Source: an archaeon (GTDB lineage Archaea > Iainarchaeota > Iainarchaeia > Iainarchaeales > CSSED10-239). Taken from it: a stretch of DNA of 22,782 nucleotides. Below are positions 5,501 through 21,248 of this stretch, piece after piece (the first letter of the stretch is position 1; every line of letters begins with the position of its first letter). Position numbers and translations under genes: made by a program. Location: NCBI GenBank assembly GCA_035387745.1, contig DAOOON010000004.1, positions 15,115 through 37,896 on the forward strand, in the 5' to 3' direction. Below the pieces are notes generated by a model, which did no database searches, was not told where the DNA came from, and saw only the letters and a list, made by a program, of their open reading frames with translations.

Positions 5501-5513
5501 ATACTTTCCTCTT

Positions 5514-6353
5514 TTATTTCCTATATACATATTTAATATATTTTGTTGAGAAAGATAAAATTACAATTATTAAAATAATAATTAAGATTATTTGAAAAAT
5601 TATTGAATTAAAAATAGTTGTTAGATTTATACTTTTTGTAAAAGAAACTAACCCTGTAAAAACAGAAATAACCTGTACTTTGGATTTATCTGTTTCTTTT
5701 TTTGGAAGCTCGAGGGTTACATAACCATAAACCCCATTACATCTATATTCTATTTTTGTTTCTTTTAAGTCTGTTTTAAAAACTCTAACCATTTTTGTTT
5801 CTACATCACTTGGAACAATTACAACGCCTATTGGATATTCTAGATTTATATCTTTTATTCCTATTACATCTAGTTCTTGATCTTTTTTGCTTGAATTATT
5901 AAAAAACAAATCTAATCTATAGTTTCCTGATTCTTTAACATAAACTATAGTGTGTTGTAAATCAATTGGACAACTTCTATTTGCTTTCTGAATAATCTCA
6001 AATTCTATTTTCTTAGAATTTTGTAAATACATTAACTCTATACTTGCTTTATAGGTTGAATCTAAAACATTTTCTTGAGGAGAAATAATTAAAGTAACTT
6101 CTTTAGATTCACTTGATTTAAGTGTGATTTTGTCTTCAGAAAAATAAGACTCGTAAGGAGAAGTATATGACACTAGAGAATAGGTTTGTTCTGTAGAATT
6201 TGGATTATAAACATAAAGAGTAACATAGATGGGTGTATCAACCACAGTTACTTTTTTTGGAAAAGAAACTGTTGGTGTGTTCTCTGCATAAATTATTTGC
6301 AAAGAAAATAATAAAGTAATCATTAAAACTAAAAATACATTTTTTTTAATCAT
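5514..6353 (-). CDS. Secreted, C-terminally membrane-anchored surface protein (279 aa), probable partner of the downstream 3620-5500 gene
   Basis: N-terminal signal peptide MIKKNVFLVLMITLLFSLQIIYA, a beta-rich middle region, and a C-terminal TM IIFQIILIIILIIVILSF followed by basic residues. Same strand as, and almost contiguous with, the next surface-protein gene. Confidence 0.55.
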   Translation of the reverse strand: MIKKNVFLVLMITLLFSLQIIYAENTPTVSFPKKVTVVDTPIYVTLYVYNPNSTEQTYSLVSYTSPYESYFSEDKITLKSSESKEVTLIISPQENVLDSTYKASIELMYLQNSKKIEFEIIQKANRSCPIDLQHTIVYVKESGNYRLDLFFNNSSKKDQELDVIGIKDINLEYPIGVVIVPSDVETKMVRVFKTDLKETKIEYRCNGVYGYVTLELPKKETDKSKVQVISVFTGLVSFTKSINLTTIFNSIIFQIILIIILIIVILSFSTKYIKYVYRK

Positions 6354-6474: not shown

Positions 6475-9400
6475 TTATCTTGCCATATCTAGGCCTATAA
6501 CTGAAGAATTACCTTTTAGAGTTACGCCAATAACCTGGTTTGCACCAGAAACAATTGTACTGTTGTGGGTAATACATATTACTGCTACTGATTTTGACAA
6601 TTCCTTGATATAATTTAGAAGGCTCTCTGAGTTTTGATCATCAAGCGCAGCATCTACTTCATCAAGAATATAGAATGGAGATTTTTTATAGGCATGTACT
6701 GCAAAAATAACAGCAAGAGCTGTTACGGTTTTTTCTCCACCAGAGATAATGTCTATGTTTTTGGTTTGGCCGTTTTTTGTTATGTTAATCATTAGCTGAG
6801 CGGTTAAAGGATCATTACCTGAAAGCTCTAAAGACCCTTTTAAGGACTTAGACATCTTTGATATGACATTTTTAAATTCAGCATTAACTTTATTGAAACA
6901 ATCCATAAAGATTGTTGTTTTTTTCATATTGATTTCATTTAGCATTGCTTCAACTTGTGCTTTTTCTGCAACAATGATATCAAATTTCTCAATAATCTCT
7001 GCATATTCCTTTGCAAGCTTTTCATAGGAATCGATTGCATTAAAATTGATATTCCCAAGAGCGTTCTTGTCTCTTTTTATTGCCCTTAGCTTTGAGTAAA
7101 GCTGCTCTATTGTAAACTCAACGGTCTCGTATTTTTCTTTAACCTCAAGCATTTTAAGACTTTGATCTGCTTGAAGAACTTTGCTTTTTAAAGTATTAAT
7201 ATTTAATCTTGCATCATTAATTTCAAGATTGATTTCTGAAATAGAAACATCAATCTCGTGTATCTGCTGATTAATCAAAGAAGACTCTTGAGAGACTTTT
7301 GATTTCTTTTGAAACATGTCCTGCTTTTTCTGGTCTTCGGTTTGGAACTTTTTGTTTATTTCTTTTATCTTGTTGTCAATCTCTAAGATTTGGTCACTAT
7401 AATTATTCATTTGAGTTTTCAGTTCTTTAAGTTTAGAATTATTTATTTCTATAAGACTAGATTTACTATCTATTTTTTCCTTTACTGTTTTTTCTTCTGC
7501 ATTCTTAGAAATTAGGCTTTGTTCTAGGATGTTTGTTTCTGAGACTAAAGAATCATATTCGTCTCTTAAGGTTGTCTGAGCACCAAGATTTAAACTTTTT
7601 AACTTATCTTCTATCTCTTGCTTTTCTTTTCTTAAAGTAACAAGTATATTATCAAGGGCGGAGGTTTCGTCTTTAATCTGTCCAAGATTTTGTGTAATTG
7701 TCTTAATGGTTGTTGTACTTGTACTTGCTGATTTTATATTGTCTGTTTTTTCAATAATCTCATCAAGAGCAGCAATATTAGTATTAAGCTTTACTTGTAA
7801 ATCTGTTAGTTCTTTATTTTTTTCGAAATGCCCTTTATTACTTGTTTCGTGGCATTTAATAATCTCTAAAAGCTTGGATTTTGCTTTTTCTAGCTCTTTT
7901 TCTGTTGCTGAAATTTTGCTTTCAAGCTCTTTTGGGTCTTTGATCAATATCTTCTTATAACAGAAGCCATCAAAGTAAAAGCCATCAATGCTTTGTGCCT
8001 TTGTCTTTGTACCTGCGTGTTCTGAAAAGATCTTTGATAGTTCTTTTTCAGATATATCAAGTGTTGTAAGAACTACAAAATTAATATTTGTGTGTTCTCC
8101 GATTTCTTTAAGGATTACAGGGATATCTTTAGAGTCCTTTAAAATTACATAATTAGAATAAATAGATTTTTGAGATTTCTCAAGAGTAACAAATTCATCT
8201 AAAAAACCAATAAAACTTTTGTGTTTTTTTAGATTTGCTTTTAACTTTTCTCTTTTGTCAAGAGCTAAAGAACTAAAAGATAGATCTTTTCTAAAACCAT
8301 TTAGTTCTATGGTTTTTTGAGATATTACTTTTTGAAGATCTTCTTTTTCTTTTTCTTCGATTTTTAATTTTTGGAATAATTTTGAGATTTCGCTTTCTAG
8401 AGTTGCTATTTCTTTTCTTTGTTTTGAGATAATTCCCTCTATTTCTTTTTTTCTTTCAAGTAGTGCCTTTGTCTCTGCTTCTTTTTCCTTGCTTTGCTTT
8501 TCAATTGTTTCTTTTTGAAACTCATAGGCTGACATCTTTGTTTTATTTGAGAAAAAATCCTCTTGCTTTTGGGTTATGTCTTTGTTTATACTTGAAAGTC
8601 TTGTGTAAAGCTCTTCTTGTATCTTTCTAACACCCTCAAATTCCTTAGAGTGCTTATTTATCTGTTCTTTAAGGTTGTCTTTTGTTTTAGATTTAAGCTT
8701 TAATTTTCCTTCTTGTTCTTTAATTATTGCTTTAACTAATTGCTCTTCTTTTTTTAGTTCTGAAAGCTCGCCAGAAAGTCTTTGGTTTTCGTTTTCTAAG
8801 TATTCTATATTTTCTTTTCTAAGATTAAGATTATTTTGAATAATCTCTTTATTTGCCTTGTTCTCTGAAAGCTCTCTACCAACTGTTGATTGTACTTTTT
8901 CTGAATGTGCAATCAAATCATTATTAATATTCTCTAATTTGTTTTCATATTCTGATATCAATAGCATTAGTTCTTTTTTCTTCTGGTTTTTAACATCAAT
9001 ATCGCTAATAAGTTTTGTAATTTTTGCTTCTTCAAGAAATAGCTCACTATTGTATTCATCTGTTTGCTTATTGTATAGATTATAACTGTAGATGTGTTCT
9101 AGACTATCAAGCTCTTTAAACTTAAGCGCTGCTTCTCTTTCTGCAGACAATTGTTCAACATATGGTTTTCTTTCGTTTAGTGCTATTGAAACTTTATCTA
9201 GTCTTTTATTTACTTTATCAAGATTATCTTGTGCTTCTTTTTTTCGTTCATCAAATAAAGAGATTCCAGAAATGTCTTCAATTATTTTTCTTCTCTCTTC
9301 TGGATTCATGTTAATTATTTTTGTAACGTCTCCCTGCTGAACAGTGTAATAGCCATCAGCAGTAATTCCGGTTTCCTCTAAAAAAGAAGTGATCTCGTTT

Positions 9401-9726
9401 AAGGCTTTTCTTTTGCCATCAAGTATACAAACAGACTTTCCTGATTCGTCTATTTCTCTAATAATGTCTATGTCTTTACCTTCGTGGTTAAAAACAACTC
9501 TAACTCTTGCTGTTCTGTCTTTAGCAGATTGGTTAACAAGATTAGCGGTCTTATCAACTCTTAGTCTTTTTAGAGAAGTAGAACCAAAACCAAAGATTAG
9601 AGCATCAATAATATTACTTTTTCCTGAACCGTTTGGACCAACAATAACTTGAAATCCTGGTTTAAAAGGTATAGTAGTATAGTCAAAGGATTTGAAATTC
9701 TTTAACACAAGCTCTTTTATATGCAT
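6475..9726 (-). CDS. smc: SMC chromosome segregation/condensation ATPase
   Basis: N-terminus MHIKELVLKNFKSF...VGPNGSGKSNIIDALIFGFG (Walker A). Long coiled-coil arms around a central hinge-like segment. C-terminus ISGGEKTVTALAVIFAVHAYKKSPFYILDEVDAALD (ABC signature plus Walker B). 1083 aa. Confidence 0.9.
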   Translation of the reverse strand: MHIKELVLKNFKSFDYTTIPFKPGFQVIVGPNGSGKSNIIDALIFGFGSTSLKRLRVDKTANLVNQSAKDRTARVRVVFNHEGKDIDIIREIDESGKSVCILDGKRKALNEITSFLEETGITADGYYTVQQGDVTKIINMNPEERRKIIEDISGISLFDERKKEAQDNLDKVNKRLDKVSIALNERKPYVEQLSAEREAALKFKELDSLEHIYSYNLYNKQTDEYNSELFLEEAKITKLISDIDVKNQKKKELMLLISEYENKLENINNDLIAHSEKVQSTVGRELSENKANKEIIQNNLNLRKENIEYLENENQRLSGELSELKKEEQLVKAIIKEQEGKLKLKSKTKDNLKEQINKHSKEFEGVRKIQEELYTRLSSINKDITQKQEDFFSNKTKMSAYEFQKETIEKQSKEKEAETKALLERKKEIEGIISKQRKEIATLESEISKLFQKLKIEEKEKEDLQKVISQKTIELNGFRKDLSFSSLALDKREKLKANLKKHKSFIGFLDEFVTLEKSQKSIYSNYVILKDSKDIPVILKEIGEHTNINFVVLTTLDISEKELSKIFSEHAGTKTKAQSIDGFYFDGFCYKKILIKDPKELESKISATEKELEKAKSKLLEIIKCHETSNKGHFEKNKELTDLQVKLNTNIAALDEIIEKTDNIKSASTSTTTIKTITQNLGQIKDETSALDNILVTLRKEKQEIEDKLKSLNLGAQTTLRDEYDSLVSETNILEQSLISKNAEEKTVKEKIDSKSSLIEINNSKLKELKTQMNNYSDQILEIDNKIKEINKKFQTEDQKKQDMFQKKSKVSQESSLINQQIHEIDVSISEINLEINDARLNINTLKSKVLQADQSLKMLEVKEKYETVEFTIEQLYSKLRAIKRDKNALGNINFNAIDSYEKLAKEYAEIIEKFDIIVAEKAQVEAMLNEINMKKTTIFMDCFNKVNAEFKNVISKMSKSLKGSLELSGNDPLTAQLMINITKNGQTKNIDIISGGEKTVTALAVIFAVHAYKKSPFYILDEVDAALDDQNSESLLNYIKELSKSVAVICITHNSTIVSGANQVIGVTLKGNSSVIGLDMAR

Positions 9727-9740
9727 TTTTGATTCTCTTT

Positions 9741-10268
9741 TTATTCTCTTAGGTAGTTTGATATATCATTAATCTTAATAGTTTTAGAACAAACTTTATT
9801 TAAATGATACGATTTTGTTTTTGGAAAACTAACATTAATTACTTGCTTTCCAAGAGCTTTTATTTCTTCTATTGCTGGAATAAAGTCTGCATCATTAGAA
9901 ACAAGTATTGCAATATCGTAGTTATCCTTGTAAGCATTAACAACCATATCAACTGCAAGTTTAACATCAACCCCTTTTTCTGATTTCTTACCATCTGGTC
10001 TTTTTTCTAATCTACCAAAAAAAATATCCATTACAGAAATTTCTCTTAAACTATCAAAAAACAGTTGTTGCTTTTTATATGCTTCTTCATCATCGTCTAT
10101 ATTTAATACCGAATTATAATATTTAATTACTATTAAATCATCATTTTCTGAGAGAAAATTACAAAACTTTTCAAAATCAATTTTGGTTTTATAAAAAGAA
10201 TTCCTTAAAGAATAATAGAAATTGCTTCCATCAATAAATATCATCACTCGCTTTATAGAATCAGACAT
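9741..10268 (-). CDS. NYN/LabA-like domain protein (predicted PIN-like ribonuclease fold)
   Basis: [15 protein letters not shown] at the N-terminus, then [11 protein letters not shown] and [23 protein letters not shown], the pattern I recall for the NYN (LabA/DUF88) family. Its stop lies 14 nt upstream of the smc start, so the two are likely co-transcribed. Confidence 0.7.
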
Positions 10269-10560
10269 TTAAATCACATAAAAGACCGCCTGCCATTGAA
10301 AATCTTTTGGATTTTCAACAACAGGGAGCTAATATTATATATAGGTAACGAAACGTTTTTAAACATTAAAGTTAGATATTTGCTCACGATAGAAATTACT
10401 GCCATCAATAAATATCATCACTCGTTTTATAGAATCAGACATTTAAATCACTTAAAGAAATCCTACCTTTGTGAACCTAAAAGATCCCCAATGGTAGGGA
10501 GTTAATTATAAATATATTATAGCGATATTTTTTTAAATATTAAAGTTGATAAAATGGCTA
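10215..10560 (-). repeat. Tandem duplication of two ~172-bp units (10215-10388 and 10389-10560). Each unit carries an AT-rich promoter-like segment, a leader hairpin and the first 18 codons of the NYN gene
   Basis: Hand alignment shows 10215-10277 vs 10389-10451 is 60/63 identical (offset 174). The central parts have diverged but each still folds into a hairpin (10289-10325 and 10462-10498). Similarity resumes distally (GGGAG[C/T]TAAT..., TTTTTAAA[C/T]ATTAAAGTT). Confidence 0.8.
10359..10442 (-). pseudogene. Truncated duplicate of the NYN-gene 5' end (27-codon remnant)
   Basis: Reverse complement reads ATG TCT GAT TCT ATA AAA CGA GTG ATG ATA TTT ATT GAT GGC AGT AAT TTC TAT..., i.e. [18 protein letters not shown]. 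This is identical to residues 1-18 of the 9741-10268 product. It then diverges and stops (REQISNFNV*). Confidence 0.7.
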
Positions 10561-11589
10561 TTACAATAACCGTTTGATTTTTAAAAAATAAGGATTATTT
10601 GCCCATATTTGATCTAAAATCTTATAGGAATTAGCAAATTTAAAATATCCTAAATAACTAGATATTGAGGATTTTACTTTGAAGAAGTTCTTTTCGTAAG
10701 TTAAAATCTTTAGTTTCTTTATAAATTTCTTAATATTTCGTTTTCTTAAAAACACATATTCTGGGTATATTTTATATCCTACAAAATCAACTCCGGTTTT
10801 TATTTCAAAAAGGTTGATTTTTTGCTTTGGAATTTCTAGTTTTAACCGTTTCTTTAAATAATATTTTATGTTCTTTTTATAGTAATTTAATTGCTTTTTT
10901 GAATCTTCTAAAATAATAAAATCATCCACATACCTATAATAATATTTAATCTTTAATTTGTGTTTTATATATTGATCTAATTCGTTAAGATATATATTTG
11001 AAAATAATTGACTTGTAAGGTTACCAATAGGAATCCCTTTATCTTCTCCAAAATTCGAATAATCACTATCAATAATATCAAATATTAATTTTTTTGTGTT
11101 CTTACATCTTATCTTTTTTTCAATTACTTGCTTTAAGATAATTTTATCAATACTTGGGAAATATTTTTTAACGTCGCATTTTAAGCAATAACCTGTAAAT
11201 CTAAACTCGCGTGAAATTGTTTTTTTAATGTCTTTTAGAGCTTTGTGTGTACCTTTGTTTTTTCTACAAGCATAAGTTGTTGATATCAGTCGTTTATCAA
11301 AAATCGGTTCAATGACATTAACAAGTGCGTGATGAACTACTCTATCTTTAAATGGCAAATATTTAATTTTTCTTTGTTTTGGATCAAAAACTATAAATTC
11401 GCGATATTTTGATTGAGTGTATGTGTTTGCTAATAGTTCTTCTTGAATCAATAACAGATTTTTCTCTAAATTAAGTGAGAATTCTAATGTTTCTTTTGTT
11501 TGTGGTTTTGCTTTTCTTGCTTTATTGTAAGCTAAAACTAAATTTTTAAAAGATGTTATTTTTGACCATAAATTGTTATATGTTTTCAT
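10561..11589 (-). CDS. DGR-type reverse transcriptase (342 aa)
   Basis: RT motifs: YVDD catalytic box at 10921-10932 (YYRYVDDFIIL). IGNLTSQ at 11008-11028, which is the [I/L/V]GxxxSQ signature that distinguishes DGR RTs from group II intron RTs. CDVKKYFPSID (motif 3/A-like). Compact size with no maturase, endonuclease or RNase H extension. Lies adjacent to a TR/VR pair and an Avd homologue. Confidence 0.9.
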   Translation of the reverse strand: MKTYNNLWSKITSFKNLVLAYNKARKAKPQTKETLEFSLNLEKNLLLIQEELLANTYTQSKYREFIVFDPKQRKIKYLPFKDRVVHHALVNVIEPIFDKRLISTTYACRKNKGTHKALKDIKKTISREFRFTGYCLKCDVKKYFPSIDKIILKQVIEKKIRCKNTKKLIFDIIDSDYSNFGEDKGIPIGNLTSQLFSNIYLNELDQYIKHKLKIKYYYRYVDDFIILEDSKKQLNYYKKNIKYYLKKRLKLEIPKQKINLFEIKTGVDFVGYKIYPEYVFLRKRNIKKFIKKLKILTYEKNFFKVKSSISSYLGYFKFANSYKILDQIWANNPYFLKIKRLL

Positions 11590-11999
11590 GTTTTTTCTTT
11601 TTAAAAAAAGATTATTGTAATATCCCTTTTTTTAAGTACTAATTACAATAACTTTTGCATTTTTTCGGCATATTTGGTATCCATTTTTTAATACAAGGCA
11701 AAAATACCTGCCAGGAATATACCAAATGTAGTTGATCATTTAAATACAATCTTTGTTTGTTTTTAAAAACAAATAATACAAACAAACTCTTTGTAAACCC
11801 ACAAGTAATGTGGGTAGACACTACAACACAACGAAACCCGATGTTGTTGTTCGTGTTAGACGGATTGTTGTTCGCGTTCAAGTTCAGAACTCCGGCGTTC
11901 GTTTCGTTGTTCCAGTTACCGCCACGCAAAAACGGTTGTGTTATTTAGTATAGCCTAGGTTTAAAACCCAAAAGAAGATAGATTGAAATATTTTTTAAA
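11590..11999 (-). ncRNA. Putative DGR RNA: template repeat plus flanking leader and a 231-nt TR-RT spacer
   Basis: Non-coding interval between avd and the RT that contains the TR. A small hairpin CCCACA-AGTAA-TGTGGG (+ strand 11798-11814) sits 7 nt after the TR end, and an 18-nt AT palindrome TTTGTTTTTAAAAACAAA lies at about 11757-11774. By analogy with the BPP-1 DGR, avd-3'/TR/spacer would form one functional RNA. Confidence 0.5.
11821..11934 (-). repeat. DGR template repeat (TR), 114 nt
   Basis: Gap-free 114-nt match to 12887-13000 (95/114 identical). In the frame of the VR it reads FLRGGNWNNETNAGVLNLNANNNPSNTNNNIGFRCVV, with 13 Asn AAY codons. It has no plausible start codon or gene context of its own. 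About 48% GC by hand count. Confidence 0.92.
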
Positions 12000-12332
12000 T
12001 TAAGTTGTTTTTAATAAGCCGCCAAGCAATTTACCTATTTCATTAATTTTTCTTGATGCAATCTCATATTTGTTAAAATTTATAAGATTTAGATCTTTTG
12101 AAAGTCTTATAAATAATCTTAGTTTTTCTATTTCTACACTTGCTATTTTTAAAGACTCTTGTCTTTCAAAATTATAATTATAAGAAACTATATTTTCAAA
12201 GAAAGCAATAAAACATAATTTGATCTTTTCGCCTAAAACATACTTTTCAGATTTTGGGAACTTATTAATTAAAGGCCAAAGCCACAAAAAGAAGTCATAG
12301 CTTTCCTTATATACTTTTAAATCATCAAGCAT
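12000..12332 (-). CDS. avd: Avd (accessory variability determinant), four-helix-bundle protein of the 23S rRNA-IVS protein family
   Basis: DLKVYKESYDFFLWLWPLINKFPKSEKYVLGEKIKLCFIAFFENIV matches the family consensus I recall (DLKVWQKA..L...IY.LT..FPK.E.Y.L..Q..RAA.SI..NIAEG). 110 aa, basic C-terminus. In the canonical position between the target gene and the TR. Confidence 0.85.
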   Translation of the reverse strand: MLDDLKVYKESYDFFLWLWPLINKFPKSEKYVLGEKIKLCFIAFFENIVSYNYNFERQESLKIASVEIEKLRLFIRLSKDLNLINFNKYEIASRKINEIGKLLGGLLKTT

Positions 12333-12336
12333 ATAT

Positions 12337-12717
12337 TCATCTTTTTTGAATTTTTCTTAAAACTCCAGAAATCATTTTTAGTTTTTCTTCTAAAGCATCA
12401 TAATTTTCTTTTAAATCTTCATCAGATATCAGTTTACTATTATTTAATAATATTAAATTAGACTGGGTTATAGAAATTGCATTTCTGGCTTTATTATACT
12501 CTATTGCTTTAAGATTTGTATCATAATTATTATAGCCACTGGCAACATAAGACAATATCTCTATTGCAGTTTTATTTGTATCCTCAATCAGAAAATAAAA
12601 GTATACATCATTATTTTTGTTTTCGCAATCATTTAAAATTGTCAATATTTTCTCAACAACAGGAAACATATCTTGATAGATTTTAAAACTAGCAACTCCT
12701 TTATCAGAGATCCACAT
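12337..12717 (-). CDS. Second, divergent Avd-like four-helix-bundle protein (126 aa from the ATG at 12717; the track ORF starts at TTG 12729)
   Basis: FKIYQDMFPVVEKILTIL...AIEILSYVASGYNNYDTNLKAIEYNKARNAISITQSNLILLNNSKLISDEDLKENYDALEEKLKMISGVLRKI follows the same helix pattern as IVS/Avd proteins (SI.SNIAEG...S.KEF..FL.IA.GS..E..T.L.LA..L.Y......L......I..ML..L). Its stop is 4 nt before the avd start. Confidence 0.6.
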   Translation of the reverse strand: MWISDKGVASFKIYQDMFPVVEKILTILNDCENKNNDVYFYFLIEDTNKTAIEILSYVASGYNNYDTNLKAIEYNKARNAISITQSNLILLNNSKLISDEDLKENYDALEEKLKMISGVLRKIQKR

Positions 12718-12757
12718 TATTTTTCCCAATTTTTAAATTAATTTTTTTTGCGCACGC

Positions 12758-12788
12758 AAAAGGCTCGCGGATACTTCCGCGACCTTTT
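12758..12788 (-). promoter_or_regulatory. GC-rich hairpin/cruciform with a 4-nt loop, downstream of the VR (candidate DGR target-recognition element)
   Basis: On the + strand, AAAAGG(C)TCGCGGA - TACT - TCCGCGACCTTTT gives 13 bp with one bulged C (12764) and loop 12772-12775. On the minus strand it is not followed by a U-tract, so it is not a classic intrinsic terminator. It sits about 90 nt 3' of the target stop codon. Confidence 0.55.
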
Positions 12789-12875
12789 GGAAACTACTGA
12801 CTAACGGACAAACGGACGATATGCCAGGAGCCAGTGGTCCAGAGGTCAGTGGTCAGGCATAACAACGGACCTCGG

Positions 12876-14225
12876 TCACGTCGGCTCTACAACACAACGA
12901 AACCCGAAGGCGATGTTCGTGGTAGACGGCTCGCTGTACGCGTACAAGTACAGAACTCCGGCGGTCGTAGCGGCGCTCCAGTCGCCGCCACGCAAAAACG
13001 CATGGGGCGGGCCAGAATCCATAAAAAAACTAACATAACCTAATCCATTATCTTTATTATAATCTGAATTTAATAAAAACAATTCCTTATATCCTATTTT
13101 TGTAAAATCAACATAATCAAAAGCATCAGAATAATTTTCAAATGATCCATTATATTCAAAACCACCTTTCCGTTCATCACAATCTCCAAAATCACTACCT
13201 ATTAATTTATTACAATCCAAATAAAAATCAGAAGTGGTTCTATCAGTCCAATCTAAAACATTTCCTGAAAGATCCCAAACTTCACTGCCATTTGTTAGCT
13301 TTAACATTGCTAGTTGATTTCTTCCGGTTCCTGATTCTGGATCAGCTCCATCATATGATACATTTGCTACAACATCTCCTGCATTCCCTCTTTTTAAAGA
13401 CCCCTGACCAACAGCCCCACTTGACCAATTGCTTGGAACAACTTCAATATTTCGAGCAATAGTCATCCATTCTTCGTTTGTTATTAAATGACCCCCAATG
13501 GATTCACACGCCAATATTGAATCTGTTTGATTAATATCTGTTAGTGGATAACCTTCTGCACTGCTTACTATTGTTCTGCTAGGCACACTATATTTACAAC
13601 TTGCATTTATGTTATTTTGCCAAGTTAAATATAATTCATTTTTACAACTGGCGTTAGTATCGCCGAGTCCATCTCCATTTTCATCTACTTTCATCTCATA
13701 TTTGGCAACACAAAAACCTTCGGTGCCATAAAGATAATTTCCTGGAACTGGAACAAAGCCTGTAGGGCATTGACTAGGAGCTGGGCTTCTGTTTGTGTTT
13801 TTTACATTATTAAAGGTTAGGTAACTGCCGTCTTCTAGTAATAAAGCAATTGATATTTTTTCTTCGTTAATAATCCCTAAAGGAAGCATGAACTCGCCTG
13901 CGTGGGTGATCTCTTTTTCTGGTTCTAGCGGGATATAGTCGTTATAGCCTAGAAGAGAATAACCTACAACTTTAAAATTAATATCAGTATTGCTTGGAGG
14001 ATAATAATCAAAGATATACATGCCGTTTTGTGCGCTTTTAAAGCGCATGAAGGATTGCTTGTCGTTTAGAACATTATAGTTGACAAGACTATCAGTTTTT
14101 GAAACCGAAGAATTTGTAAAGTTTTTTCCCCAGTTTAAAACTATAGTTACAAGAATTACTGCAACTACTACTAAAAGAATTGTTGCAACTATTGGAGTTA
14201 TAGCTTTTGCTTTACTATTTTTCAT
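12876..14225 (-). CDS. DGR target (variable) protein: archaeal type IV pilin-like N-terminus fused to an FGE-sulfatase/C-type-lectin-fold domain with a C-terminal VR
   Basis: N-terminus MKNSKAKA/ITPIVATILLVVVAVILVTIVLNW matches the archaeal class III signal peptide and pilin hydrophobic core. FGE-sulfatase-like motifs: GFVPVPGN...GFCVAKYEMK, ACESIGGHLITNEEWMTIARN, WDLSGNVLDWTD, and terminal RGGDW...GFRCVV. The VR lies at the extreme C-terminus, as in known CLec-fold DGR targets. Confidence 0.88.
   Translation of the reverse strand: MKNSKAKAITPIVATILLVVVAVILVTIVLNWGKNFTNSSVSKTDSLVNYNVLNDKQSFMRFKSAQNGMYIFDYYPPSNTDINFKVVGYSLLGYNDYIPLEPEKEITHAGEFMLPLGIINEEKISIALLLEDGSYLTFNNVKNTNRSPAPSQCPTGFVPVPGNYLYGTEGFCVAKYEMKVDENGDGLGDTNASCKNELYLTWQNNINASCKYSVPSRTIVSSAEGYPLTDINQTDSILACESIGGHLITNEEWMTIARNIEVVPSNWSSGAVGQGSLKRGNAGDVVANVSYDGADPESGTGRNQLAMLKLTNGSEVWDLSGNVLDWTDRTTSDFYLDCNKLIGSDFGDCDERKGGFEYNGSFENYSDAFDYVDFTKIGYKELFLLNSDYNKDNGLGYVSFFMDSGPPHAFLRGGDWSAATTAGVLYLYAYSEPSTTNIAFGFRCVVEPT
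12887..13000 (-). repeat. DGR variable region (VR), the last ~38 codons of the target gene
   Basis: 114-nt counterpart of the TR. It reads FLRGGDWSAATTAGVLYLYAYSEPSTTNIAFGFRCVV. It differs from the TR at 19 positions, 17 of them at TR adenines. About 60% GC by hand count in an AT-rich genome. It ends 8 nt (12879-12886) before the stop codon at 12876-12878. Confidence 0.92.
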
Positions 14226-14273
14226 GATCTCTGTGCCTCTCTATTTATATTATTAATAACATAAATAAATAAA

Positions 14274-14313
<40 letters not shown>

Positions 14314-14325
14314 ATTTTTTAGTTA

Positions 14326-15615
14326 TCAAAAGATATCGTTTCTTTTTATCTCAGTTTTACCATACATGTACTTTTGAAGGACTTTTGGAATCTTTATTGT
14401 GCCTTCCTTTGTCTGATGATTTTCAAGTATTGCAACAAGCGCCCTTGAGGTTGCTATTGCTGTGTCGTTAAGTGTATGAACAAAATATTTTTCGCCTTGC
14501 TTTGTCTTTGCCTTAATGTTTAATCGGACTGCTTGAGCACTTGTAAGATTACTACAAGACGCAACTTCAATATACTTGTTGTTTCTTGGAGACCACACTT
14601 CAATGTCTGCGCTTCTATGTTTTAAATCCCCAAGATCTCCAGAACAAATTTCCAGCGTTCTTGTTGGTAGTTCCATTGAGGTAAAAATCTTAACTGTATT
14701 TTTAATTAATTCTTCATATAGTTTTTCTGATTGCTCTGGTTTACAAATAATTATCTGCTCAACCTTATCAAACTGATGTAATCTAAATAACCCTCTTTCA
14801 TCAAGGCCATGACTGCCTATTTCTTTTCTAAAGCATGATGAAAAACCAAAAATCTTAATTGGTAATCTTTCTTCATCAATTGTTTTGTCCAAAAACATAG
14901 AAATGATTGGATGTTCAGAGGTTGCAATCATGTAAAGGTCTTCACCTTCAATCTTGTAAGCCATTTCTTTAAAGAAAGAAAAGTCCACACTTCCTTCACA
15001 AGCTTTTTTGTTAATCATTAATGGCGTTAAAACATAAGTAAAGCCTTTCTTGTTTAGGAAATCCTGAGCATAATTTATTAGTGCTCTGTTTAGGAGCGCT
15101 AAATCTCCTTTAAGATAATAGAAACCTTTTCCTGAAACATTTCTTGAAGCTTCAAAGTCTGCGACATTTAGTTTTTCTGAGAGCTCTCCGTGATTGAGAA
15201 CTTCAAAGTCTTTTTTTTCTGGTTCTCCAAATCTTTTAATTTCTTTATTTTCTGTTTCGTCTTTACCAATTGGTGTCTTTCTTGACATTATGTTTGGTAT
15301 TTTTTTTTGAATATCAATAATTCTTTCAAATAGTTCTTTTTGTTTATCATCTATAACTTTAATCTGATCAGGGAATTTCCTTGCTTCTGCTAAAAGGTCT
15401 TCTGTTGGTAATCCCTTTTGCTTGTTTTCTGCAATCTTGTCTGTTACACTATTTCTTTTGTGTTTTAAGTCGTTTGCCACTTGGATATTTGCTCTGTATT
15501 CTTCATCAAGTCTTATAATTTCATCAACTAAAGGAAGAAGAATATCTTTGCCTTTTTTTTTTATATTTTCTTTAACTTTCTTAGAATTCTCTCTAATGAA
15601 TTTTAGTTCAAGCAT
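14326..15615 (-). CDS. serS: Seryl-tRNA synthetase
   Basis: MLELKFIRENSKKVKENIKKKG is a typical SerRS N-terminal coiled-coil arm. Class II core motifs are present: FRKE (CFRKEIGSHG), RLHQFDKVE, and the C-terminal GTIKIP...L..YM. 429 aa. Confidence 0.92.
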   Translation of the reverse strand: MLELKFIRENSKKVKENIKKKGKDILLPLVDEIIRLDEEYRANIQVANDLKHKRNSVTDKIAENKQKGLPTEDLLAEARKFPDQIKVIDDKQKELFERIIDIQKKIPNIMSRKTPIGKDETENKEIKRFGEPEKKDFEVLNHGELSEKLNVADFEASRNVSGKGFYYLKGDLALLNRALINYAQDFLNKKGFTYVLTPLMINKKACEGSVDFSFFKEMAYKIEGEDLYMIATSEHPIISMFLDKTIDEERLPIKIFGFSSCFRKEIGSHGLDERGLFRLHQFDKVEQIIICKPEQSEKLYEELIKNTVKIFTSMELPTRTLEICSGDLGDLKHRSADIEVWSPRNNKYIEVASCSNLTSAQAVRLNIKAKTKQGEKYFVHTLNDTAIATSRALVAILENHQTKEGTIKIPKVLQKYMYGKTEIKRNDIF

Positions 15616-16696: not shown

Positions 16697-17218
16697 TTAT
16701 ATCTTTAACAAATAATAATTTACAATTCTGCCATCATTTATGCTCTTGTCTTTCTTTATAAATTTTGAGCCAGATTCTAACATATTGTTTATGGAATATT
16801 TATTTTCTGGATGTGCGGAATGTAAAAAATATTTCTTGCCTTTCTTTTTTAAATATTCTATTCTTTTTTTTATTAGAAACTTCTGAATACCATAGCCTCT
16901 AAACTTAGGAGAAACCGCTGTTGCGATTAAAACACTTGATTTGGATAATTGTTTTTCTGTAAAATTATAGATTTTTGCATAAAACGGCTCGGCTTTTATT
17001 TTTATCCCTGCCCAAGCAACCAATTGTTTATCAAAAAACACAAGCATTATTTTTCTGTCTTTTGAAATCATATTTTTAAGTATTTCTTTTGTGTGCCTAA
17101 AATAAAAATCATGGTTTACTTGTCTATAGATATTAATATCAAATTTATTGATGATGTCAATATCTTTCTCAGTAGCAAAACGATAAGTAAAGATTTTATC
17201 TTTTAGTTTTACTTTCAT
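16697..17218 (-). CDS. GNAT-family N-acetyltransferase (173 aa)
   Basis: VSPKFRGYGIQKFLIKKRIEYLKKKG is the acetyl-CoA-binding R/Q-x-x-G-x-G/A motif, set in typical GNAT beta-alpha topology. Confidence 0.7.
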   Translation of the reverse strand: MKVKLKDKIFTYRFATEKDIDIINKFDINIYRQVNHDFYFRHTKEILKNMISKDRKIMLVFFDKQLVAWAGIKIKAEPFYAKIYNFTEKQLSKSSVLIATAVSPKFRGYGIQKFLIKKRIEYLKKKGKKYFLHSAHPENKYSINNMLESGSKFIKKDKSINDGRIVNYYLLKI

Positions 17219-17823
17219 GTGATTTCAATAATTTCTTTTTTAGTTTATTATAATTAAATTCTTTATTTAATAATTCATAATAATATGCATTTCTAAATTT
17301 ACCATAGATTACAACTTCGTCTCTAAAATAACCTTGTTGTTTAAACCCAAACTTTGCAATGTGCTTTTGGCTTCTTATGTTGTCTATTAAAACCATAGAA
17401 TTGATTTTGTGTAATTTCAAATCTTTAAACGCAAGCTTAAAGATTTCAAGTCTTGCTTCTGCCATTAATCCACTACCCCAATACTTTCTTGAAATCCAAC
17501 TTCCACTTTCGCAATTCTTGTTTCTAAAATGAATATTATTTAATGATTCAACGCCAATTATCTTCTTGTCTTTCTTATGCAATAATCCAAAGATAAGTGT
17601 TGGTGTTGATTTCTTTAAATTCTTTTTTTGCATCTTTAATAAATTTAGTAGCATCACTCATTTTGTAAGGCCAAGGAATTATCCAAATTTGTTTAGAAAA
17701 TATTTTATCTTGCATTGCTTGATAAATATCATTAGCATCGCTTAGTTTTAATGGTCTTAAGATTAGGTGCTTTGTTTCAATCTTATAGTTTTTATATTTT
17801 AAAAAAAATTCTTGATTTTTCAT
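17196..17823 (-). pseudogene. RimJ/RimL-like GNAT acetyltransferase interrupted by a 1-nt frameshift
   Basis: Track ORFs 17575..17823 (N-terminal part, ...HLILRPLKLSDANDIYQAMQD...) and 17196..17657 (C-terminal part, ...IIGVESLNNIHFRNKNCESGSWISRKYWGSGLMAEARLEIFKLAF...) are consecutive parts of one Acetyltransf_3-type protein in frames offset by 1. The overlap contains an A7 run (T7 on the + strand, 17623-17629). Confidence 0.7.
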
Positions 17824-18785: not shown

Positions 18786-21248
18786 ATGATGATTATGAAT
18801 AGGTGTTTTTTATTATTGTTTTTTTTAGTATTGCTAATTGGAAATGTTTATGCAATTACAATTAATGAAATAACAATAACTCCTGATCTAGATATATCTT
18901 ATTTTGGAAGATACCAAATTGATGCAAATATTACAGAGTATTCTGGAAACGACGTTAATCTTTTAGTTTCTGCAATCAATGGGGATGGTGGAACGTGTTG
19001 GGATTATTTTGTGGATGGTACTTGCTCAAGCGAAACGCCTTCAACTTACTCTATGGATTATAATGAAACAACTGGTTTTTGGCACTATGATAGAGTATAT
19101 CCTGACACCATCTATCCTGAAATTATATTTATTGATTCTCCAACAAATTGGAATAACGCTCCCTCATGGGTAAATCTATGGAGACAAAATTATCATATCT
19201 TTAAAATGTATAATAGTTTTGAAATGGATTCAAACATGAATCTATGGATTGAATTTAATACTGAACCAGTAAGCACAAATAATTCAGGAGATCTTTTTGT
19301 TTATGTTGTGGGAGCTGGCGTTCCATTAAGTTATTTTACAAGCGATTGGAGAGATGATTCAAATACACAACTTGTTGGAACGATTTCAAGGAATACGGCA
19401 TTTAACCACGATCACACACCTTCAACACATTATGTAAGACATCATCTGATTCCAATAACTGCAAACCCTGATGGTACAATTGGAACAAATCATGTTAATA
19501 TATCTGATGGCAATTTCTATATTGTTCTTTATCAAGACTCCACAGCAACGAATAGAGGTTGGAATCTTGCATATAAACCAACAAGTCTTTGTGATAACAC
19601 CGACAATTGGTTTACAGCAAACAGAACAGGAGGAAACTGGAACCTACCGATTCATAGATCTGGCTGTTCAGACGCTCACATTCATTTTGCAAGAAGAGAA
19701 ACTTACAATGATGGAGTAAATTTAGAAGTGACTGCTGTTGATGGAGAAGACATTACAACTCTTGATGTAAACTATTATTTTGCAGAACTACCAAACCTTG
19801 CACCAAACGAAACTTCTTTTATCACACCAATTCCTTTAGCAACATACGACACTAATTCCATAGAACTTTCTTGGAATCCTGCAACTGATCCAAATAATGA
19901 TGATTTGACTTATGATATCAATTATATGGATAGCGACGGAAATATATTTGTAATTGATAACAATTTTACAGACACAAACATTTCTTGGGACGTTTCTGCA
20001 CTAGAAGATGGAAATTATTTAATTCTTGGAAGTGTTTGTGATACTGAACCACTATGTACGGACTTTAATCTAAGTGATTATTTCTATATTAATCGTTCTG
20101 AACCAATCTATTCTCTTTCAACAATCACAATTGCGTCAAATTATTTTTATACAGACTATGCAAAAGTTGGAAGCCAAATAAATTTGTCTTTTATTTCTAC
20201 AGGAACATTATCAGAAGACCTAAATGTGATTTTCTATGCAAATGGTGTAGAAGTAACTGGAGACATAAATGTTACAAATAATACAAATGATTACAATGCA
20301 ACTTATGTTATACAGGAAGAAGACGATGATGGCATTGTTGGCTTTACAATAAGTGCAACTAATCTTGACTATGATTATTTTGATACAACAGATGATTCTT
20401 ATGTGACAATAGATAACACTATTGCAGATCAAGACCAAGACAACATCCCTGATGCAAATGATACTTTTGTTGGGAGTTTAGGTATTGTTGAAACAGAAGG
20501 AATTGATGATTTAAATATCACAATTGATGACGACACAAATATTGTAGGAATATTTACTGGTGTACAAACCATAAAAATTTATGACGCCCAAACACCAATT
20601 TTGGAATTTGATCATAACTTTTCAGAAAGCACACTTGATTTATCTGTAATAAAAATTATTAAAACAAATGCAGGCGTGGTTGTTGACTTAAACGGGCAAC
20701 TTCAAGAAGACCAGAACAAAACACTTTATCTTGAAAATAATAATTTTATTTCGCTTTGTGTAGAAAATGAAGCAATAACTTCAATTTCAGACATTAGTTC
20801 TAATTGCTTGGATGCTAACGAATATGATTTTACTGAATGCTTAAGCGAAAGCTATTCTAGTAACGGAATAGATTGTGTTCTAAATGGAAACCTAATAACA
20901 GTAAGTAATCTTAGATATTCAGGAATACTTGGAACAGTAAGAACAACAAGTGGTGGAAATTCTATTTCAAAAGAGGCAGATGATACAGAAGAGATTATTT
21001 CTGAAATAAACACCGACACAGAAAATACAGACAATAATCCAATTATTGTTACGCCAGAAGATAAAGACCCAGAATATAATGTGGTCTCCTCTGATAGCCC
21101 AGATTATAAACCAAATGATGAAATGCCACCAATAGATTACTCTAGAAAAAGCAAAAACACAACAACCATTTGGATAATTACCTATTTTATTTGTGCCTTA
21201 ATAATTGGTATAACAATATATCTATTCACTAAAATAAGATACAGATAA
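18786..21248 (+). CDS. Large secreted, C-terminally anchored surface protein (820 aa) with an FN3-like module, a thrombospondin-type-3-like Asp-rich repeat and an uncharacterised Trp/Cys-rich N-terminal domain
   Basis: Signal peptide MNRCFLLLFFLVLLIGNVYA. ELSWNPATDPNNDDLTYDINY is FN3-like. DQDQDNIPDANDTF is a Ca-binding TSP3-like repeat. An acidic, Thr-rich stalk precedes the C-terminal TM TIWIITYFICALIIGITIYLF, followed by TKIRYR. Confidence 0.6.
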   Translation: MMIMNRCFLLLFFLVLLIGNVYAITINEITITPDLDISYFGRYQIDANITEYSGNDVNLLVSAINGDGGTCWDYFVDGTCSSETPSTYSMDYNETTGFWHYDRVYPDTIYPEIIFIDSPTNWNNAPSWVNLWRQNYHIFKMYNSFEMDSNMNLWIEFNTEPVSTNNSGDLFVYVVGAGVPLSYFTSDWRDDSNTQLVGTISRNTAFNHDHTPSTHYVRHHLIPITANPDGTIGTNHVNISDGNFYIVLYQDSTATNRGWNLAYKPTSLCDNTDNWFTANRTGGNWNLPIHRSGCSDAHIHFARRETYNDGVNLEVTAVDGEDITTLDVNYYFAELPNLAPNETSFITPIPLATYDTNSIELSWNPATDPNNDDLTYDINYMDSDGNIFVIDNNFTDTNISWDVSALEDGNYLILGSVCDTEPLCTDFNLSDYFYINRSEPIYSLSTITIASNYFYTDYAKVGSQINLSFISTGTLSEDLNVIFYANGVEVTGDINVTNNTNDYNATYVIQEEDDDGIVGFTISATNLDYDYFDTTDDSYVTIDNTIADQDQDNIPDANDTFVGSLGIVETEGIDDLNITIDDDTNIVGIFTGVQTIKIYDAQTPILEFDHNFSESTLDLSVIKIIKTNAGVVVDLNGQLQEDQNKTLYLENNNFISLCVENEAITSISDISSNCLDANEYDFTECLSESYSSNGIDCVLNGNLITVSNLRYSGILGTVRTTSGGNSISKEADDTEEIISEINTDTENTDNNPIIVTPEDKDPEYNVVSSDSPDYKPNDEMPPIDYSRKSKNTTTIWIITYFICALIIGITIYLFTKIRYR

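Follow-up and report, generated by a model that had tools for sequence, protein, structure and literature searches.

The stretch of DNA analysed here (22,782 nucleotides, or 22.8 kb, of contig DAOOON010000004.1 in assembly GCA_035387745.1; hereafter, the window) carries a complete diversity-generating retroelement (DGR) on its minus strand. A target gene ending in a variable repeat (VR) is followed by a GC-rich hairpin, two genes for four-helix-bundle proteins, a template repeat (TR), a spacer of 231 nt (11590-11820), and a reverse transcriptase (RT) gene. A preliminary description of this DNA had named all of these parts, and each of them was recovered at the position it gave, including the hairpin downstream of VR and the full length of the spacer. 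All four open reading frames (ORFs) are intact: 12876-14225 (449 aa), 12337-12729 (with an ATG at 12717), 12000-12332 (110 aa), and 10561-11589 (342 aa). The locus is identified as a DGR because a DGR-clade RT and a genuine Avd occur together with a TR/VR pair biased towards adenine changes, a target of C-type-lectin fold with a 3' VR, and the GC hairpin. Judged from sequence comparison, it is very likely a chromosomal DGR that has been active in its lineage and bears no sign of decay. The features are collected in Table 1. Related loci and assemblies are referred to by L numbers where they have to be told apart.

Reverse transcriptase and TR/VR pair

Residues 2-325 of the RT align with chain A of PDB 8ub7 (E=1.6e-62, 215 bits with phmmer), an entry entitled 'Diversity-generating retroelement (DGR) ribonucleoprotein reverse transcriptase' that represents the ribonucleoprotein of the Bordetella phage DGR. 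Group II intron RTs reached at best 2e-19 and at most 73 bits against the window RT, and retron-type RTs about 1e-15. The profile PHROG 1423 gave 399 bits. The IGNLTSQ motif and the YVDD box reported earlier are both present, and the DGR RT signature is [I/V/L]GxxxSQ replacing QGxxxSP (PMC7826257). All ten residues of the Bordetella enzyme (bRT) that were checked are conserved. They comprise the catalytic residues D138, D215, and D216, the template or dNTP contacts K29, F66, I76, I181, G182, and Q187, and the adenine-mutagenesis residues R74 and I181, both of which have been shown to promote adenine mutagenesis (PMC7826257). Pairwise and profile comparisons place the RT in the DGR clade.

The window contains one long direct repeat, 11814-11934 versus 12880-13000, with 82% identity over 121 nt and an offset of 1066. 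Within the 114-nt core, TR and VR differ at 19 positions, 17 of which are TR adenines (A>G 6, A>T 6, A>C 5); the other two are TR thymines (11918 T>C and 11864 T>G). Over the 123-nt span 11814-11936, 35 bases are adenines, and these account for 18 of the 24 mismatches (hypergeometric P = 1.3e-7). The changes from TR to VR fall at positions 1 and 2 of AAC codons. The divergence had been called adenine-specific; a strong adenine bias is confirmed, but strict specificity is not, since two of the 19 core mismatches lie at thymines. An ordinary paralogous repeat with unbiased substitutions is excluded by these spectra (P ~1e-7 within the window and 7e-17 between the VR alleles compared below). In the TR/VR pairs of L096, L005, L009, L099, L012, L014, and L015, adenines account for 86-100% of the mismatches. 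An ORF overlying TR (11639-11929) is rejected as a gene, being a by-product of the repeat; it resembles FGE-sulfatase weakly.

L099 (JGI 3300010355, the sample of L001) holds a second related DGR, with a target 70% identical to that of the window and 20 of 21 TR/VR mismatches at adenines. Its context differs, with RhuM-like and DEAD/ResIII helicase genes adjoining, and it comes either from another organism or from an island-borne copy.

Table 1. Positions of the DGR features and of the flanking genes in the window
Feature	Coordinates	Strand	Description
Target gene	12876-14225	minus	449 aa; predicted pilin-like N-terminus and beta-sandwich, then C-type-lectin/FGE-sulfatase-fold domain ending in VR
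Putative class III (prepilin-type) signal peptide and hydrophobic helix	14118-14225	minus	MKNSKAKA/ITPIVATILLVVVAVILVTIVL
VR	12887-13000	minus	last 38 codons of target
VR 3' flank	12790-12886	minus	non-coding, 50-60% GC, 7-8-nt tandem units; 12880-12886 is an imperfect boundary resembling an initiation of mutagenic homing (IMH) site
GC-rich hairpin	12757-12789	minus	13-bp stem, one bulge, AGTA loop, flanked by AAAAGG/CCTTTT
avd-like gene	12337-12717	minus	126 aa, isoelectric point (pI) 5.2; predicted four-helix bundle
avd	12000-12332	minus	110 aa, pI 9.1; NF033474, bAvd, PHROG 3206
Segment upstream of TR	11943-11952	minus	TATACTAAAT; complementary to 11718-11727; candidate 'cPRT Stop' duplex arm
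TR	11821-11934	minus	114 nt, 34 adenines, 12 AAC and 1 AAT codons
Stem-loop directly 3' of TR	11797-11815	minus	ACCCACA TTAC TTGTGGGT; candidate Avd-binding stem-loop
Second spacer hairpin	11752-11786	minus	TTTGTTTG ... CAAACAAA
Invariant ACTACA	11727-11732	minus	complementary to TR 3' end TGTAGT (11820-11825); candidate template:primer duplex
Spacer segment	11718-11727	minus	ATTTGGTATA; probable pairing with 11943-11952
Spacer 3' hairpin	11603-11651	minus	TTATTGTAAT ... ATTACAATAA, then T7 run just before RT start
DGR RT	10561-11589	minus	342 aa; phmmer against PDB 8ub7_A, conserved residues, PHROG 1423
serS	14326-15615		neighbour of DGR
NYN gene	9741-10268		neighbour of DGR
smc	6475-9726		neighbour of DGR

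Strain comparison

The TR is identical in nine assemblies of the species. L005 and L096 share the TR of the window (136 of 136 nt, flank included) and have different VRs. Together, the three VR alleles of the window, L005, and L096 have 30 variable positions. TR adenines account for 27 of these and thymines for 3 (Fisher P = 7e-17). L014 and L015 likewise have one RT in common and differ in VR.

Between the window and L096, serS, TR, the spacer, RT, and NYN differ by 0-0.8% (0/114 in TR, 0/231 in the spacer, and 1/1029 in RT), whereas a block of 1.55 kb (13710-12167) is about 20% divergent; L005 was also compared. This block holds the lectin domain of the target, VR and its flank, the hairpin, the avd-like gene, and the first ~55 codons of avd. 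The 5' half of the L096 avd shares 95-96% identity with the corresponding part in lineages with an RT only ~78% identical, and 96% with L097, so the block has probably been exchanged between lineages. The L096 block would then reflect allele exchange at the DGR target, which is the probable case, or a chimeric assembly. A uniform strain divergence of 95-98.5% among the window, L096, and L005 was considered and rejected. The per-region table shows a mosaic, which qualifies the argument for independent diversification in situ.

Between the VRs of the window and L096 there are 22 adenine-templated differences and changes at 2 of the 80 other positions, while the flanks differ by 18-32% (binomial estimate ~2e-5). 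Because the non-adenine positions of VR are nearly identical inside a block that is ~20% divergent, VR appears to be held homogenised to TR, as would be expected of a retrohoming footprint. Homogenisation does not tell in which lineage the rewriting took place, because TR is nearly identical across lineages.

A syntenic locus in L097 (L097:6001-8842; ENA ERZ934801, a 171-kb contig) contains serS, target, avd-like, avd, NYN, and smc but neither the RT nor the spacer. Downstream of its TR copy lies sequence similar to the 3' flank of VR in the L096/L005 allele, and the VR of L097 contains a 9-nt insertion. L097 looks like a relative of the element that has decayed. No decay of this kind, RT loss or a VR indel, was seen in the window element.

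Avd and its paralogue

Avd is present in about 74% of DGRs. The 110-aa protein of the window is a canonical member, scoring 94.7 against the NCBIfam equivalog NF033474 DivGenRetAVD (cut-off 80) and 73.2 against Pfam bAvd PF22296 (cut-off 40), and matching PHROG 3206, 'Avd protein of DGR', at 9e-25. Avd adjoins the RT in 150 of 180 RT-relative loci.

The upstream avd-like gene is more divergent. Its product scored 25.6 bits against Pfam 23S_rRNA_IVP (PF05635), under the cut-off of 33.8, and matched neither bAvd nor NF033474 in Pfam and NCBIfam; PF05635 is matched by seven of nine orthologues (best E 1.6e-7). The AlphaFold2 (AF2) model has four helices and a mean predicted local distance difference test score (pLDDT) of 88. 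The top Foldseek matches of this model are 2gsc and 2rld, which are pentamers of the 23S-IVP family, Avd 4dwl, and the Avd chains of 8ub7/8ube. With 4dwl, the template modelling (TM) scores are 0.75/0.87 and the root-mean-square deviation is 2.0, although the Foldseek E-values are modest (1.5e-3 or weaker). A local iterative hidden Markov model (HMM) search from the avd-like family reached canonical Avds at the third round, and hhalign found no signal between the avd-like alignment and the clade Avd alignment, both of which are shallow. Searches of PDB sequences with the target, Avd, and avd-like proteins, as single sequences or small profiles, returned nothing significant, so that for these proteins only the comparison of folds was informative. 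The preliminary description counted two Avd-like genes. One of them is a canonical Avd; the other stays under all curated thresholds and, by its predicted Avd-type four-helix-bundle fold, is read as a divergent Avd-fold paralogue rather than a second canonical Avd. The acidity of the paralogue (pI 5.2) was dropped as a hallmark, the orthologues having pI values of 5.5-9.3.

Among the 180 loci, the tandem of avd-like and avd occurs only where the spacer is homologous to that of the window. These loci are the window group, L009, L097/98, L099, L100, L012/13, L014/15, L016 (Forterrea), and L102. On this sequence sample, the pair is confined to one small archaeal clade.

Target protein

The C-terminal domain of the target exceeds the cut-off of the Pfam FGE-sulfatase family (29.2 bits against 23.3), and the protein ends in ...IAFGFRCVVEPT. 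In the AF2 model (pLDDT 76), structure prediction yields a C-type-lectin fold with VR at the C-terminus. The top Foldseek matches are the DGR variable proteins TaqVP (5vf4) and Mtd (1yu0-4), followed by FGE.

The N-terminus reads MKNSKAKA followed by ITPIVATILLVVVAVILV..., with a putative cleavage site at K-A/I-T-P-I-V-A-T-I-L-L-V-V-V-A-V. The window protein itself scores under the pilin cut-offs, at 17.2 against 25.2 for Pilin_N (PF07790) and 14.6 against 20 for TIGR02537. In the target family (n=32), TIGR02537 is matched by 14 members (best E 9.4e-6) and the UpsA pilin by 13 (E<0.01). Homologues from bacteria of the candidate phyla radiation (CPR) combine the prepilin N_methyl domain PF07963 with PF03781 (FGE-sulfatase), and in the source databases several homologues bear the labels 'flagellin-like' or 'archaellin/type IV pilin N-terminal domain'. 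In the model, a helix at residues 11-49 precedes strands at 60-141 (pLDDT 65-90). Foldseek matched the N-terminal ~150 residues to the archaeal pilins 8fk7_A (E 2.5e-4), 6nav_A (3.9e-3), and 6w8u_A (1.1e-2), with TM scores of ~0.4 normalised to the target. There are no pilus-assembly genes in the window. Taken together, the family and model data make a pilin-like display of the lectin-fold domain a reasonably probable arrangement. The product would likely be a surface or pilus-displayed ligand-binding protein of variable specificity, through which an ultrasmall DPANN archaeon could plausibly attach itself to host cells or to other ligands. Roughly 17 codons would be randomised at the C-terminus of the lectin fold, which by our own count gives about 6e17 possible proteins.

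VR 3' flank and TR-spacer RNA

The VR 3' flank consists of the units CTGACCA CTGACCT CTGGACCA CTGGCTC and of three copies of GTCCGTT. A related array is found in L012, and L014 and L016 have four to five copies of (A)GACGGNN in the same place. The hairpin that follows has a folding free energy of -15 kcal/mol as DNA (z = -5.1), and none of 200 shuffled sequences folds equally well. Its stem pairing is kept despite sequence change in L096/L005/L009/L097, L099, L012, and L014. The GC-rich repeats and the hairpin follow VR, and neither follows TR. The IMH-like match between TR and VR is imperfect and spans 7 nt (12880-12886 versus 11814-11820), and the L005/L096 alleles lack even this match. In a survey of DGRs, 34% had a GC-rich inverted repeat following the IMH (Wu et al. 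2018, PMC5758913). The flank is a candidate recipient-site determinant, in which the GC-rich repeat array may take over the role of the IMH.

The spacer RNA was compared among nine distinct loci (window, L009, L010, L100, L099, L012, L014, L016, and L102), with homologues collected by nhmmer. In the stem-loop directly 3' of TR, both stem sides are changed in L009, L010, L099, and L012. The second spacer hairpin has eight pairs, four of them with compensatory changes according to RNAalifold, and is also present in the minimum free energy fold. A compensatory change in the spacer 3' hairpin is seen in L009 (TAATTGTAAT/ATTACAATTA). RNAalifold recovered one hairpin on the spacer, the MAFFT alignment of the length-variable stem-loops being poor. 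These comparisons support the predicted stem-loops.

The ACTACA motif is invariant among the nine loci and lies ~90 nt downstream of TR. Its putative duplex with TGTAGT is lengthened by covarying bases in L012, L014, L016, and L102; examples are GTAGTTTTT/AAAAACTAC in L014, GTAGTTTAT/ATAAACTAC in L102, and GTAGTC/GACTAC in L012. By analogy with the Bordetella DGR RNA element model, which includes a cPRT Stop duplex (bioRxiv 10.1101/2023.10.23.563531), A11727 is a candidate priming nucleotide. The spacer partner of the stop duplex begins 0 nt after CTACA in eight of the nine loci, and the other arm lies 8-40 nt upstream of TR. The sequences of the two arms differ among L012, L014, L016, and L102 while their complementarity is kept. 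Long-range duplexes were assessed by alignment-free duplex energies against shuffled sequences, using as anchors the motifs picked for conservation, and they are considered probable.

In L012 (1226-2497) and L013, whose RTs are 58% identical to that of the window, an AAA_14/DUF4143 ATPase gene lies on the opposite strand between avd and TR. Because TR in these loci keeps an upstream segment of its own with the complementary 'stop' arm, this arrangement argues that the TR-spacer RNA has its own promoter. A motif of 10-11 nt, (G)TTATTGTAAT, recurs in the spacer and across the RT stop (10565-10575, 11612-11621, and 11642-11651), and its complement ATTACAATAA precedes the RT start; the copies in the spacer pair with each other as a hairpin.

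A cis-priming mechanism can be inferred for this element from its likeness to the Bordetella system. The RNA would comprise TR (114 nt) with ~60 nt of upstream sequence and the 231-nt spacer. The stem-loop just 3' of TR would dock the Avd barrel, and the TR 3' end TGTAGT would pair with the spacer ACTACA, allowing a spacer adenosine to prime cDNA synthesis in cis. Pairing of the spacer with the segment upstream of TR would cap the length of the cDNA. Copying of TR by the RT-Avd complex would be faithful except at adenines, and the cDNA would replace VR via homology at its adenine-free ends. The GC hairpin and GC-rich repeats, present downstream of VR and not at TR, may mark the recipient site.

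Alternative explanations

Several observations weigh against a DGR that is active in its lineage and displays a pilin-like target. Three of the changes among the VR alleles are not at adenines (T>C, T>G, and T>G). The alleles also lie inside a block seemingly exchanged between lineages, which confounds the three-allele comparison, and with a TR nearly identical across lineages the mutagenesis may predate the block exchange. It is possible that L096 is a chimeric assembly. The pilin assignment of the window protein rests on sub-threshold HMM scores and a pLDDT-76 model, and the support for the long-range RNA duplexes is modest per sequence (p 0.003-0.13, with anchors picked for conservation). 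Finally, the window and L001-L004 have one and the same consensus VR, so that these five independent assemblies, which are 99.9% identical and differ elsewhere by 5-16 single-nucleotide polymorphisms (SNPs), give no sign of VR turnover in their population. This last point favours an element that is intact but at present quiescent or fixed, with the VR allele under purifying selection or with retrohoming very rare or tightly regulated. That assemblers crossed VR unbroken in the five samples points the same way, and so do the two non-adenine differences between the window VR and TR, which are not found in the other alleles and fit some time since the last rewriting. However, the four intact ORFs and conserved RT catalytic residues speak against it, as does the lack of any change in the 345 nt of TR and spacer relative to strains whose adjacent block is ~20% divergent. 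The five assemblies may stem from a single series of related samples, and minority variants are lost in a consensus. In relatives, contigs often end at VR or a little upstream of it, which is suggestive of population heterogeneity but ambiguous, as the TR/VR repeat may also break assemblies. On balance, present quiescence is the most serious competitor, and we regard it as unlikely. The earlier statement that the element looks functional is supported for the past, by the strain comparisons; for the present it lacks support, given the same consensus VR in five assemblies.

Two other explanations concern the nature of the element. Phages carry many DGRs, relatives of the RT occur in phages at ~40% identity, and the related DGR in L099 adjoins RhuM-like and helicase genes, all of which would suit a DGR borne by a virus, provirus, or other mobile element. 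Against this, the direct flanks are serS and NYN-smc within a set of neighbours (adk, smc, NYN, serS, FKBP, GNATs, NIF3, prs, rpiB, and tRNA-Arg) of housekeeping character, and no phage, integrase, transposase, or other mobile-element genes were found in the 22.8-kb window. The position of the DGR is shared by L009, L010, L096, and L097, with NYN-smc synteny kept in L009 and L010 at 76-78% RT identity; relatives with 54-58% RT identity lie in other housekeeping contexts. The G+C content of the element is not foreign except in the VR region, and IMG/VR holds no RT relative closer than 44% identity. The chromosomal location proposed earlier is thus upheld, and a mobile carrier is very improbable. 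It is even less credible that TR/VR is an ordinary duplicated fragment of the target and the RT a member of a group II intron, retron, or defence class. The best NCBIfam match of the RT is indeed a group II intron model (136 bits), PADLOC returned only generic RT, defence-associated RT (DRT), and UG-type matches (at most 156 bits), and the ORF over TR is weakly FGE-sulfatase-like. Yet the group II score is far under its 300-bit cut-off, and the scores for the retron and DRT models are far under theirs. The bRT match with a single sequence, the PHROG 1423 score, the adenine-biased spectra, and the canonical Avd next to the RT all contradict this explanation. An Rfam scan of the window gave a tRNA as its sole match, with no intron, retron, or DGR-RNA family.

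A more speculative extension of the DGR reading starts from the mosaic described above. In this Iainarchaeota-type clade, the DGR might consist of a writer (TR, spacer RNA, RT, and most of Avd), near-identical between strains, and of a recipient that is swapped as a block, so that a pilin tip is varied by hypermutation and by cassette exchange for host attachment. We hold this to be doubtful, somewhat more so than present quiescence. It is equally tentative that the recipient would comprise the lectin domain of the pilin-like target, VR, the GC-rich array, the hairpin, and a dedicated Avd paralogue. For the paralogue, a recipient-side role such as target-DNA recognition or a mixed Avd barrel is conceivable at a similarly low level of confidence.

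Genomic context and neighbouring genes

The window has a G+C content of ~29%, with a maximum of 38% over 12.5-13.5 kb. The exact RT is present on at least 10 contigs (JGI, Logan, and NCBI). The proposed DPANN-type archaeal origin is consistent with the NCBI protein label '[archaeon]' and with the named relatives 'Candidatus ainarchaeum sp.' and Ca. Forterrea multitransposorum among the matches listed; the latter belongs to the Iainarchaeota, kingdom Nanobdellati. A chromosomal, DPANN-type placement is supported by these sequence comparisons, indirectly as far as taxonomy is concerned.

All of the 5-16 SNPs of L001-L004 lie in smc, in patches at 6571-6991, 7489-7529, 7780-7825, and 9124-9127 (the coiled-coil region). 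This distribution points to patches of recombination or to assemblies of mixed strains. Between the RT stop and NYN (10215-10547) there is a tandem duplication of ~174 nt, with copies 77% identical and a 68-nt core 94% identical, which copies the NYN upstream region and the first 18 codons of NYN. The duplication belongs to NYN and not to the DGR, because it is kept in L005, L096, L009, L010, and the RT-less L097. Between serS and the target start (14261-14326) lies a (TA)n run of ~40 nt that forms a perfect palindrome. This intergenic region is 22 nt shorter in L096 and may be a length-variable promoter region of the target.

A GNAT (Acetyltransf_3) gene at 17196-17823 is split into overlapping ORFs for its N-terminal (17575-17823) and C-terminal (17196-17657) parts. 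The same split occurs in L001-L003, which speaks for a pseudogene with a frameshift, or for programmed frameshifting, and against a sequencing error of a single assembly. Four ORFs at 1985-3619, 3620-5530, 5514-6353, and 18786-21248 (544, 636, 279, and 820 aa) have no match above the Pfam curated cut-offs, with one marginal exception. The 636-aa product shows weak Cep192_D3 (just over the cut-off), fn3-like, and DUF1616 matches. These four ORFs may encode further surface proteins.

Significance

The element does not change the general picture of DGRs. What makes it valuable as an example is that it is complete, unusually clean, and open to comparison. At least nine public datasets contain it in assembled form, and with three natural VR alleles on one TR and an RT-less syntenic relative, activity and decay can be studied without cultivation. 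Archaeal and CPR DGR targets typically have no recognisable membrane or other domains, and their surface location was left open (Roux et al. 2021, PMC8144416). The pilin-type N-terminus of the target family and the prepilin domain of the CPR homologues make this question testable. The display of a lectin on a type IV pilus-like structure, to which these data point, fits the attachment-dependent lifestyle of these organisms. The conservation of the spacer elements suggests that cis-priming, as worked out for the Bordetella phage, applies in Archaea too. Both the Avd paralogue of this clade and the apparently exchangeable VR block give biochemistry a starting point.

Comparison with known systems

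The prototype is the DGR of Bordetella phage BPP-1 (mtd-avd-TR-brt), which has the same order of target-VR, hairpin, avd, TR, spacer, and RT. The RTs are alignable end to end (with the 8ub7 E-value given above) and conserve the functional residues. Both systems have a basic four-helix-bundle Avd, a C-type-lectin-fold target with a C-terminal VR, and a TR built of AAC codons. The TR-adjacent stem-loop and the complementarities of the TR 3' end and of the upstream segment to the spacer lie at corresponding places. Unlike the phage-borne BPP-1 element, the window DGR is chromosomal and archaeal, its target is pilin-like rather than a tail fibre, and it has an additional, divergent Avd paralogue on the upstream side of avd. 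The hairpin of the window lies ~90 nt downstream of VR, past the GC-rich short-repeat array, whereas the inverted repeat of BPP-1 lies close to the IMH. The pair formed by the IMH and its TR counterpart (IMH*) is unlike that of BPP-1, amounting to the 7-nt imperfect match only. The Bordetella spacer (Sp) is shorter than the 231 nt found here.

Among the solved DGR variable proteins, TaqVP of Thermus aquaticus (5vf4) is the best structural match to the predicted target (E 2.5e-5). Proteins of this type share with the target a C-type-lectin fold, C-terminal variable residues, and a GFRC-type ending. There is no phmmer-detectable sequence similarity between them, and the global TM scores are 0.3-0.4, low because the model is multi-domain. 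The pilin-like helix and beta-sandwich of the target are absent from TaqVP-type structures. In Bacteroides, DGRs acting on type V pilus adhesins are described as likewise varying the ligand-binding part of a pilus-associated protein (bioRxiv 10.1101/2024.11.15.621889). This parallel is an analogy only, between a bacterial type V and an archaeal type IV-like pilus, in another domain of life and another protein family.

Large catalogues of DGRs from DPANN and CPR organisms exist (PMC5758913, PMC8144416), which bears out the earlier remark on their abundance in these groups. Like the window element, they are cellular and chromosomal, reside in ultrasmall and probably episymbiotic hosts, and have C-type-lectin/FGE targets and usually an Avd. 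Among the matches listed, the nearest RT relatives include Iainarchaeota (Ca. Forterrea), Woesearchaeota, Pacearchaeota, Saccharibacteria, and Parcubacteria. As a difference, the target family of the window element shows a putative archaeal pilin-type N-terminus. In an earlier survey, one DGR out of 372 had two avd genes (Wu et al. 2018, PMC5758913), whereas the tandem of avd-like and avd is conserved across the clade of the window. The window element is a canonical DGR of a well-catalogued kind, and what goes beyond the catalogue is its predicted pilin-like target, its conserved Avd paralogue, its probable archaeal counterparts of the Bordetella DGR RNA elements, and its apparently exchangeable VR block.

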